DNA of 410 nt from Escherichia coli (GTDB lineage Bacteria > Pseudomonadota > Gammaproteobacteria > Enterobacterales > Enterobacteriaceae), in assembly GCF_003334305.1 (NCBI RefSeq), contig NZ_QOWS01000079.1; one strand, 5' to 3'. Positions 1 to 410 of this stretch are shown here, one piece after another. Position 1 is the stretch's first letter, and the number at the start of each line of letters is the position of its first letter. Position numbers and translations under genes: made by a program. The notes beneath the pieces were generated by a model that was not told the DNA's origin, did no database searches, and saw only the letters and a list, made by a program, of their open reading frames with translations.

Positions 1-410
1 CTGGATATCGATATCCCGTATGCGACGGACCCGGCAGGAAACCGGCTGCCGGACCCGGAACTGCACCCGGACAGCACCCTCACGGCGTGGCCGGATAACC
101 GCATCGCGGAAGATGCGCACTATGTCTACCGCTACGATGAATACGGCAGGCTGGCGGAGAAGACGGACCGCATCCCGGAAGGGGTGATACGGATGCACGA
201 CGAGCGGACCCACCACTACCACTACGACAGCCAGCACCGTCTGGTGTTCTACACGCGGATACAGCACGGTGAGCCGCAGGTGGAGAGCCGCTACCTCTAT
301 GACCCGCTGGGCCGCCGGACGGGAAAACGGGTGTGGCGGCGGGAGCGTGACCTGACGGGGTGGATGTCGCTGTCGCGTAAACCGGAGGAGACCTGGTACG
401 GGTGGGACGG
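1..410 (+). CDS. Rhs-family / YD-repeat protein, internal core fragment (5' and 3' partial); polymorphic toxin shell region
   Basis: Frame 1 (codons starting at nt 1) is open across all 136 complete codons, while + frames 2 and 3 contain stops (frame 2: TGA at 185 and 353; frame 3: TAA at 96 and 378, TGA at 138, 300 and 348). Translation: [137 protein letters not shown]. It carries YD-repeat motifs (consensus roughly xYxYDxxGRL) at nt 13-48 (degenerate, [12 protein letters not shown]), 121-153 ([11 protein letters not shown]), 211-246 ([12 protein letters not shown]), 289-333 ([15 protein letters not shown]) and 394-410 (WYGWDG, cut by the window edge). Codon third positions are strongly G/C-biased (CCG, CTG, CGC, GAC, TAC), as expected for a real high-GC coding frame. 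The match to enterobacterial Rhs core is from memory, not a database search. The specific paralog cannot be assigned, so no gene symbol is given. Confidence 0.85.

Follow-up and report, generated by a model that had tools for sequence, protein, structure and literature searches.

The stretch of Escherichia coli DNA analysed here, 410 nucleotides long and hereafter called the window, is an unremarkable Rhs core segment, as the original prediction had assumed. Frame 1 of the plus strand is open throughout the 410 bases, plus-strand frames 2 and 3 are interrupted by stops, and the minus strand has no open reading frame of at least 20 amino acids contained entirely within the window. On the NCBIfam profile RHS_core (NF041261; 1261 positions), the translated window takes up positions 909-1044 with an E-value of 4e-93. 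When 5,426 complete E. coli genomes were searched by megablast, the 100% matches fell under genes annotated as 'RHS element core protein'. Its GC content of 64.9% (60-70% in 100-nt windows) is typical of the GC-rich core. The coding features of the window are the following:

Positions 1-410, plus strand: in-frame Rhs core coding segment, corresponding to codons 909-1045 of the 1416-codon gene at locus L001.
Positions 127-153, plus strand: YD-repeat motif YRYDEYGRL, from the translation, with weak TIGR01643 support.
Positions 217-243, plus strand: YD-repeat-like motif YHYDSQHRL, recognized by eye in the translation, without a separate profile score.
Positions 292-318, plus strand: YD-repeat-like motif YLYDPLGRR, likewise recognized by eye and without a separate profile score.

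The profile TIGR01643 (YD_repeat_2x) gives a weak whole-protein match to the window (E 6e-4), with its best stretch at amino acids 43-57 and no single stretch passing. The internal DNA repeats consist only of 13-15-nt pairs at a spacing of about 70 nt; they are consistent with the protein repeat and were set aside as a noteworthy feature in their own right. No exact Chi site (GCTGGTGG) occurs within the window, where two one-mismatch matches are not above chance, and Chi sites were rejected as a recombination stimulus on account of this absence. A phage origin was ruled out, since none of 50,697 phage records matched the window. A plasmid origin was likewise dismissed, the 11 matching plasmid records being mostly mis-filed chromosomes or Rhs-only fragments. 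One of the records filed as a plasmid, NZ_OL790696.1 (4,795,340 bp), has five places matching the window and is evidently a mislabelled chromosome.

The gene at locus L001 is 4,251 nt long and contains the window at ORF nt 2725-3134, the first base falling exactly at codon 909; in L002 and L008, the window occupies nt 2737-3146 of the gene at the rhsH position. The whole L001 protein scores 2633.8 bits over positions 1-1261 of NF041261, an equivalog profile with a curated cut-off of 2000, and matches TIGR01643 in 5 stretches (E 1.8e-48). With Pfam, the N-terminus of the protein matches DUF6531, no PAAR family being reported by the search; the other matches include eleven to RHS_repeat (E at most 0.001) and one to RHS (PF03527) at amino acids 1153-1188. 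The RHS-associated core domain (TIGR03696, amino acids 1179-1256, E 1.6e-23) and the core/tip boundary, which lies in the DPxGL-type motif region (...YYDPLQGRYITQDPIGL...IDSLGL in the L001 protein), are both located outside the window. The GC content amounts to 63.5% in the core, 36.0% in the tip and 33.1% in the downstream dsORF-h1, which corresponds to the GC-rich core, AT-rich extension and downstream ORF of the Hill definition. The solved relatives of the L001 gene are Rhs effectors belonging to type VI secretion systems (T6SS), e.g., Tse5 (8cp6) and Rhs (7q97). Judging from these relatives and from family membership, the window segment would supply YD-repeat strands to a shell enclosing the C-terminal toxin, and the toxin would probably be delivered through a type VI secretion system's VgrG tip. 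The tip of L001 (10877-11527) possesses an HExxH motif (GHEFAH) and a weak match to Peptidase_M91 (E 0.004), which suggests a candidate metallopeptidase toxin. The adjacent dsORF-h1 (L001 11539-11988) matched no NCBIfam family.

Four settings were found for the exact window, with a tip and a dsORF-h1 identical in kind in all of them. In the first, an intact gene stands right after the Hcp-VgrG genes of the T6SS cluster adjoining yafV/fadE (L001); in the second, an intact gene lies between yncH and pptA, 7 kb downstream of a tandem RhsE-type gene (dsORF-e4) (L002, L008). The two other settings are 5'-truncated remnants, one fused to a truncated tssM (L013) and the other situated right after yncH (L014). 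Hcp and VgrG are encoded immediately upstream of rhs in L001, L009, L015 and L016, and the copy at the rhsH position is preceded by a DUF3969 gene instead of vgrG. Downstream of dsORF-h1 in L001 (12249-16092), an IS66-family insertion (ISCro1-like) interrupts the ISAs1/H-repeat. The cassette common to L001 and the yncH-pptA locus appears to end, on its downstream side, at the ISAs1 element. The first setting is presumably that of RhsG (min 5.3) and the second that of RhsH (min 32.8, in tandem with RhsE) of Wang, Zhao & Hill 1998. By name, the window core would belong to the RhsG/H subfamily, a label based on the NCBI name 'dsORF-h1' and on this correspondence; the subfamilies rhsABCF, rhsDE and rhsGH had been defined earlier (Jackson et al. 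2009, PMC2935791).

The copies of the window were counted by megablast in the 5,426 complete E. coli genomes, using E-value cut-offs as identity thresholds for a full-length 410-nt match. The identity bands returned agreed with the intended thresholds, all identities being relative to the window:

Any megablast match: 3,720 genomes, 10,366 places, median 3 per genome, maximum 6.
About 90% or more: 3,623 genomes, 8,528 places, median 2, maximum 5.
About 95% or more: 2,315 genomes, 3,250 places, median 1, maximum 4.
99% or more: 885 genomes, 918 places, median 1, maximum 2.

Because these identities refer to the window, the relevant sample is that of the listed genomes with an exact copy. Among the matches listed, at least two places occur in 38 of 40 such genomes at any identity, in 45 of 60 at about 90%, in 19 of 60 at about 95% and in 1 of 60 at 99%. 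Roughly three in four of the sampled exact-match genomes hold more than one copy at about 90% or more, and a near-identical second copy is confined to about 4% of genomes (of 885 genomes with a place at 99% or more, 33 have two and the other 852 have one). The expectation that the window would be repeated elsewhere at high identity is borne out at the lower of these levels and fails for most genomes at the higher one. Counting at 90% or higher, as had been proposed, gave a median of two places, but 15 of the 60 listed exact-match genomes have a single one. Moreover, the closed genomes NZ_CP020509.1 and NZ_CP024821.1 have one place each at any identity, precisely the finding that had been named as contrary to a multi-copy sequence, whereas most genomes carry several copies.

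The common matches at about 90% are of the RhsD/E type. The rhsD and rhsE genes of K-12 are identical to each other in the window segment, where they align with the window without gaps at 91.0% identity with a longest exact run of 55 nt, and in L002 and L008 the window has 89.8% identity with its tandem RhsE-type neighbour, with which it shares the following run:

Positions 197-266, no strand assigned: 70 nt identical without interruption to the RhsE-type core that lies in tandem 7 kb upstream in the same genome, the longest such run between the two (ORF nt 2933-3002 of the rhsH-position gene of L008).

This run sits in a local island of about 90% identity between G/H-type and D/E-type cores. 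Three patches excepted, the window gene is 64-80% identical to D/E-type cores along the core; the largest of these patches (ORF nt ~2700-3200, 86-92% identity) contains the window, and identity drops to 65-75% on either side of the window. According to Nei-Gojobori estimates, pN between the window and D/E-type cores is 0.04, against 0.15 for the core, and pS is 0.27-0.31, against 0.45-0.46; in the comparison with RhsA, pN is 0.09, against 0.18 for the core. Nowhere in the core is the constraint on the protein stronger than in the window. As pN is low there and pS is still high, the matches at about 90% result mainly from amino-acid constraint on an old paralogue and not from recent duplication. 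The RhsA/B/C cores are more distant still: rhsA, rhsB, rhsC and the ybfO fragment of K-12 are 81-82% identical to the window, with longest exact runs of 15-22 nt between the window and RhsA/B/C, and the window gene is 56-82% identical to RhsA along the core. For RecA-mediated exchange in E. coli, perfect identity is required over a few tens of bases, and sequences diverged by about 10% are kept from exchanging by mismatch repair. With exact runs of only 55-70 nt and some 10% divergence, the RhsD/E copies would thus be poor RecA substrates for the window. The near-identical cores evoked in the original prediction are not the usual case for this particular stretch, since its second copies at 99% or more are rare and its common relatives at about 90% belong to the RhsD/E type.

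The cores are patchwork mosaics, and one crossover boundary lies inside the window. The gene of the T6SS/yafV locus (L001) and that of the yncH-pptA locus (L008/L002) are 94.96% identical over ORF nt 200-2283 and 99.93% identical over nt 2284-4963 (Fisher p 8e-36), a block that takes in the remaining core, the tip and dsORF-h1. The near-identity runs on into the downstream ISAs1/H-repeat and ends where the locus-specific flanks start. It follows that the same cassette, made of 3' core, tip, immunity gene and ISAs1, is present at two chromosomal loci whose flanking gene order is intact. A second footprint comes from the closed genome NZ_CP028122.1, in which 1.38 Mb separate the T6SS-locus core (L009 26535-30770) from the rhsH-position core (L008 17265-21527), both lying on the same strand. 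Compared with each other, these cores display successive identities of 96.9%, 79.1%, 100% over 1,257 nt, and 76.0%. The perfect run (ORF nt 1812-3068) covers the window from position 1 to about 323-332, and the window copy in L009 differs from the window at positions 333, 389 and 393 only (99.27%). Up to ORF nt 3060, the informative sites of the L009 core comprise 125 H-like and 0 E-like ones; beyond that point, they comprise 30 H-like and 129 E-like ones (Fisher p 6e-52). This switch defines the following boundary:

Positions 324-333, no strand assigned: crossover or conversion boundary in the chimeric T6SS-locus core of NZ_CP028122.1, placed by the informative sites and by the end of the perfect run.

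The boundary is located just downstream of the 70-nt island common to D/E-type cores. Beyond it, the L009 core turns to the RhsD/E type and ends in a region about 100% identical to K-12 rhsE and ydcD. The claim that recombination between cores swaps toxin/immunity modules is thereby supported, both breakpoints being sharp and one of them lying inside the window. The K-12 rhsE-type tip and ydcD, at about 100% identity, occupy L009 30754-31236 on the T6SS-locus Rhs gene of NZ_CP028122.1; at this identity, the module of the 5'-truncated K-12 pseudogene is found joined elsewhere to an intact, VgrG-linked core. In the same genome, the tandem neighbour was ruled out as the second copy at 99% or more, being 89.8% identical; the actual copy is that of the T6SS locus, 1.38 Mb off. 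The T6SS-locus cores of Sakai and of strain 1283 are also patchworks, their pairwise identity ranging from about 66% to 100% in adjacent 200-nt windows. In Sakai, an orphan core fragment located 4.25 kb downstream of the main gene holds a copy of the window, which is 95.4% identical to the main gene in the window segment, with an exact run of 107 nt.

The original prediction had invoked duplications and deletions mediated by the cores. None of the loci examined showed a duplication, deletion or inversion with a core at each end, and the classical RhsA/B/C cores, at 81-82% identity, would be too distant from the window. Two truncated remnants were candidates for such events. In L014 (NZ_CP020509.1, 9000-9002), the deletion removes about 11 kb, starting upstream of vgrG and reaching core nt ~1736, and its junction has a 2-nt overlap. 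In L013 (NZ_CP033401.1, 8462-8503), roughly 21 kb are deleted, as estimated from the locus map, between tssM and core nt ~1221, with a 7-nt overlap, which takes out most of the T6SS cluster. Both junctions join non-homologous DNA, with overlaps of 7 and 2 nt; core-core homologous deletion was rejected for both, and these deletions are illegitimate events. The 5' end of K-12 rhsE (L007 ~3884) and the L014 remnant (~9001) have their left deletion endpoint at the same place downstream of yncH, a hint that this boundary is shared or recurrent. The core apparently resumes at about nt 2230 in K-12 rhsE and at nt 1736 in L014, the K-12 right endpoint being uncertain, as megablast cannot align the region at so low an identity.

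The caution about assembly that accompanied the prediction is a fair one. A perfect repeat of 1,257 nt exceeds short-read length, and it occurs in a closed genome; in addition, three 'plasmid' records of 6.8-7.3 kb consist of Rhs-locus DNA only, without a replication gene:

NZ_OY757120.1 (pF873-2), positions 1-7307: Rhs-only 'plasmid' (L011).
NZ_CP034740.1 (pL65-4), positions 1-6767: Rhs-only 'plasmid' (L012).
CP048292.1, positions 1-7010: Rhs-only 'plasmid' (L010).

The tandem RhsE-type/RhsH-type repeat accounts for the whole of pF873-2 with exactly one period, closed inside the core at about ORF nt 3570, and its 7.3 kb are chromosomal in many genomes at about 96% identity. These records of about 7 kb are either tandem repeats closed by the assembler or real excision products. 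A circular intermediate has been postulated for the displacement of C-terminal tips (Jackson et al. 2009, PMC2935791). That pF873-2 and pL65-4, circular records each made up of a single repeat period, are real circles excised by recombination between adjacent cores, the island around the window being a preferred zone of crossover between subfamilies, seems unlikely. For those who assemble or annotate the window locus, related Rhs cores are to be expected elsewhere in the genome, and a long-read check of the locus context is advisable where a same-subfamily copy or an orphan fragment is present.

It is very probable, in our opinion, that the window belongs to the core of an E. coli Rhs polymorphic toxin of the h1-tip/dsORF-h1 type, a member of a dispersed family whose homology has been used for recombination in the past. 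At the DNA level, the window belongs to a dispersed, sometimes tandem, core family and has provided homology for recombination. Exchange would presumably proceed by RecA-dependent homologous recombination or gene conversion, with one exchange point in the core and the other probably in the downstream ISAs1/H-repeat or the flank, and would result in the replacement of the toxin/immunity cassette, leaving the flanking gene order unchanged. The quality of the substrate would vary from genome to genome with the partners present. Good partners would be same-subfamily copies or downstream orphan fragments, with 95-100% identity and exact runs of 107-1,257 nt; RhsD/E cores, with about 90% identity over about 500 nt only, would be poor ones, and RhsA/B/C cores, at about 82%, negligible. 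Neither RecA dependence nor the direction of transfer can be read from the sequence, and the identical blocks seen in different strains could result from horizontal transfer and homologous replacement instead of intragenomic exchange.

Other readings have to be weighed against these data. In its own genome, the window might be effectively single-copy, devoid of any partner above about 95%, and would then represent no real hazard for recombination or assembly. This is a serious possibility, although somewhat short of an even chance: among the matches listed, a single place occurs at about 95% or more in 41 of the 60 exact-match genomes and at about 90% or more in 15, a single place at 99% or more occurs in 852 of 885 genomes, and NZ_CP020509.1 and NZ_CP024821.1 offer one place at any identity. 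However, a further place is found among the matches listed in 45 of the 60 at about 90% or more and in 19 at about 95% or more, and 95% over about 0.5 kb is the very homology invoked for recombination between the main and orphan rhs of Salmonella (PMC3967940).

That the similarity between copies reflects purifying selection alone, without any recombination, is very improbable. The low pN of the window (0.04 against 0.15 for the core with RhsD/E, 0.09 against 0.18 with RhsA) and the high synonymous divergence (0.27-0.48) agree with selection, but selection can yield neither a run of 1,257 nt with zero synonymous differences between flanks of 76-79% identity within one genome, nor a sharp switch from 95% to 99.9% identity, and pS between the window and the D/E-type cores is about one-third under the core mean. 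As a complete explanation, selection is thus refuted, and it nevertheless remains the main one for the RhsD/E matches at about 90%. Even less credence can be given to the idea that the identical blocks are artefacts of assembly or polishing, in which the reads of one Rhs copy correct another. Rhs repeats do confuse assemblers, as illustrated by the three Rhs-only 'plasmid' records of about 7 kb and by the 4.8-Mb chromosome filed as a plasmid, yet the same cassette arrangement is seen again in closed genomes obtained independently by different laboratories (L001, L002, L008, L013, L014), and the exact window is found in many genomes, 885 of them having a copy at 99% or more.

The reading of the window as a dispersed core segment used in past recombination is therefore retained, in a form that qualifies the earlier one. 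The first guess appears right in kind and overstated in degree: the data partly support it, in so far as the window has served as a substrate for the exchange of toxin modules, but not as a demonstrated rearrangement hot spot, nor in exchange with RhsA/B/C cores. A hot spot in the sense of at least two near-identical cores would be present in a minority, 33 of 885 genomes, e.g., NZ_CP028122.1 with its direct repeat of 1,257 nt, but is lacking from most window-bearing genomes. The name 'rearrangement hot spot' is accordingly over-read for this type of core, whose near-identical partners are rare and whose visible footprint is cassette exchange. That footprint, i.e., exchange of toxin/immunity cassettes with preservation of the flanking gene order and not gross rearrangement, agrees with the views of Jackson et al. 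2009 (PMC2935791), according to whom tips are common to different loci and no natural rhs-mediated chromosomal rearrangement has been reported. The same authors found, however, that cores cluster by locus and considered recombination between cores of different loci to be infrequent, which speaks against the reading retained here. These findings belong to established and already known Rhs biology, and their value is practical instead of conceptual.

With respect to known systems, the window gene resembles the RhsG/RhsH subfamily of the Hill nomenclature (clade I rhs, PMC2935791) in its GC-rich core of about 3.7 kb with YD repeats, its AT-rich tip, the dsORF-h1 followed by the ISAs1/H-repeat downstream, and the same T6SS/yafV and yncH-pptA positions. 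Nothing sets it apart from this subfamily, and the exact window occurs in 5'-truncated remnants too. The rhsD and rhsE genes of K-12 resemble the window at 91.0% identity and are the source of most matches at 90% or more, but differ from it by their 64-80% identity outside ORF nt ~2700-3200 and by a synonymous divergence of 0.27-0.31. The first elements to be called rearrangement hot spots (Lin, Capage & Hill 1984, cited after PMC2935791), i.e., rhsA, rhsB and rhsC of K-12, share gene family and architecture with the window gene and, being 98.5-100% identical to one another here, are the kind of repeat that the original prediction had in mind. Their phenotype arose under selection for a glyS duplication between rhsA and rhsB, and recA-dependent unequal crossover between rhsA and rhsB does occur under selection (Jackson et al. 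2009, PMC2935791). At only 81-82% identity with the window, however, no recombination is expected between them and it. A parallel in layout is provided by the main and orphan rhs of Salmonella Typhimurium, for which Koskiniemi et al. 2014 (PMC3967940) proposed that recombination across 522 bp of 95% identity exchanges the toxin tip and generates a chimeric rhs; they used Southern blot and junction PCR to test this idea. In Sakai, the main gene and the orphan fragment, both containing the window segment, are arranged in the same way, but the Salmonella genes belong to another clade and another species, and the E. coli loci considered here are known from sequence alone.
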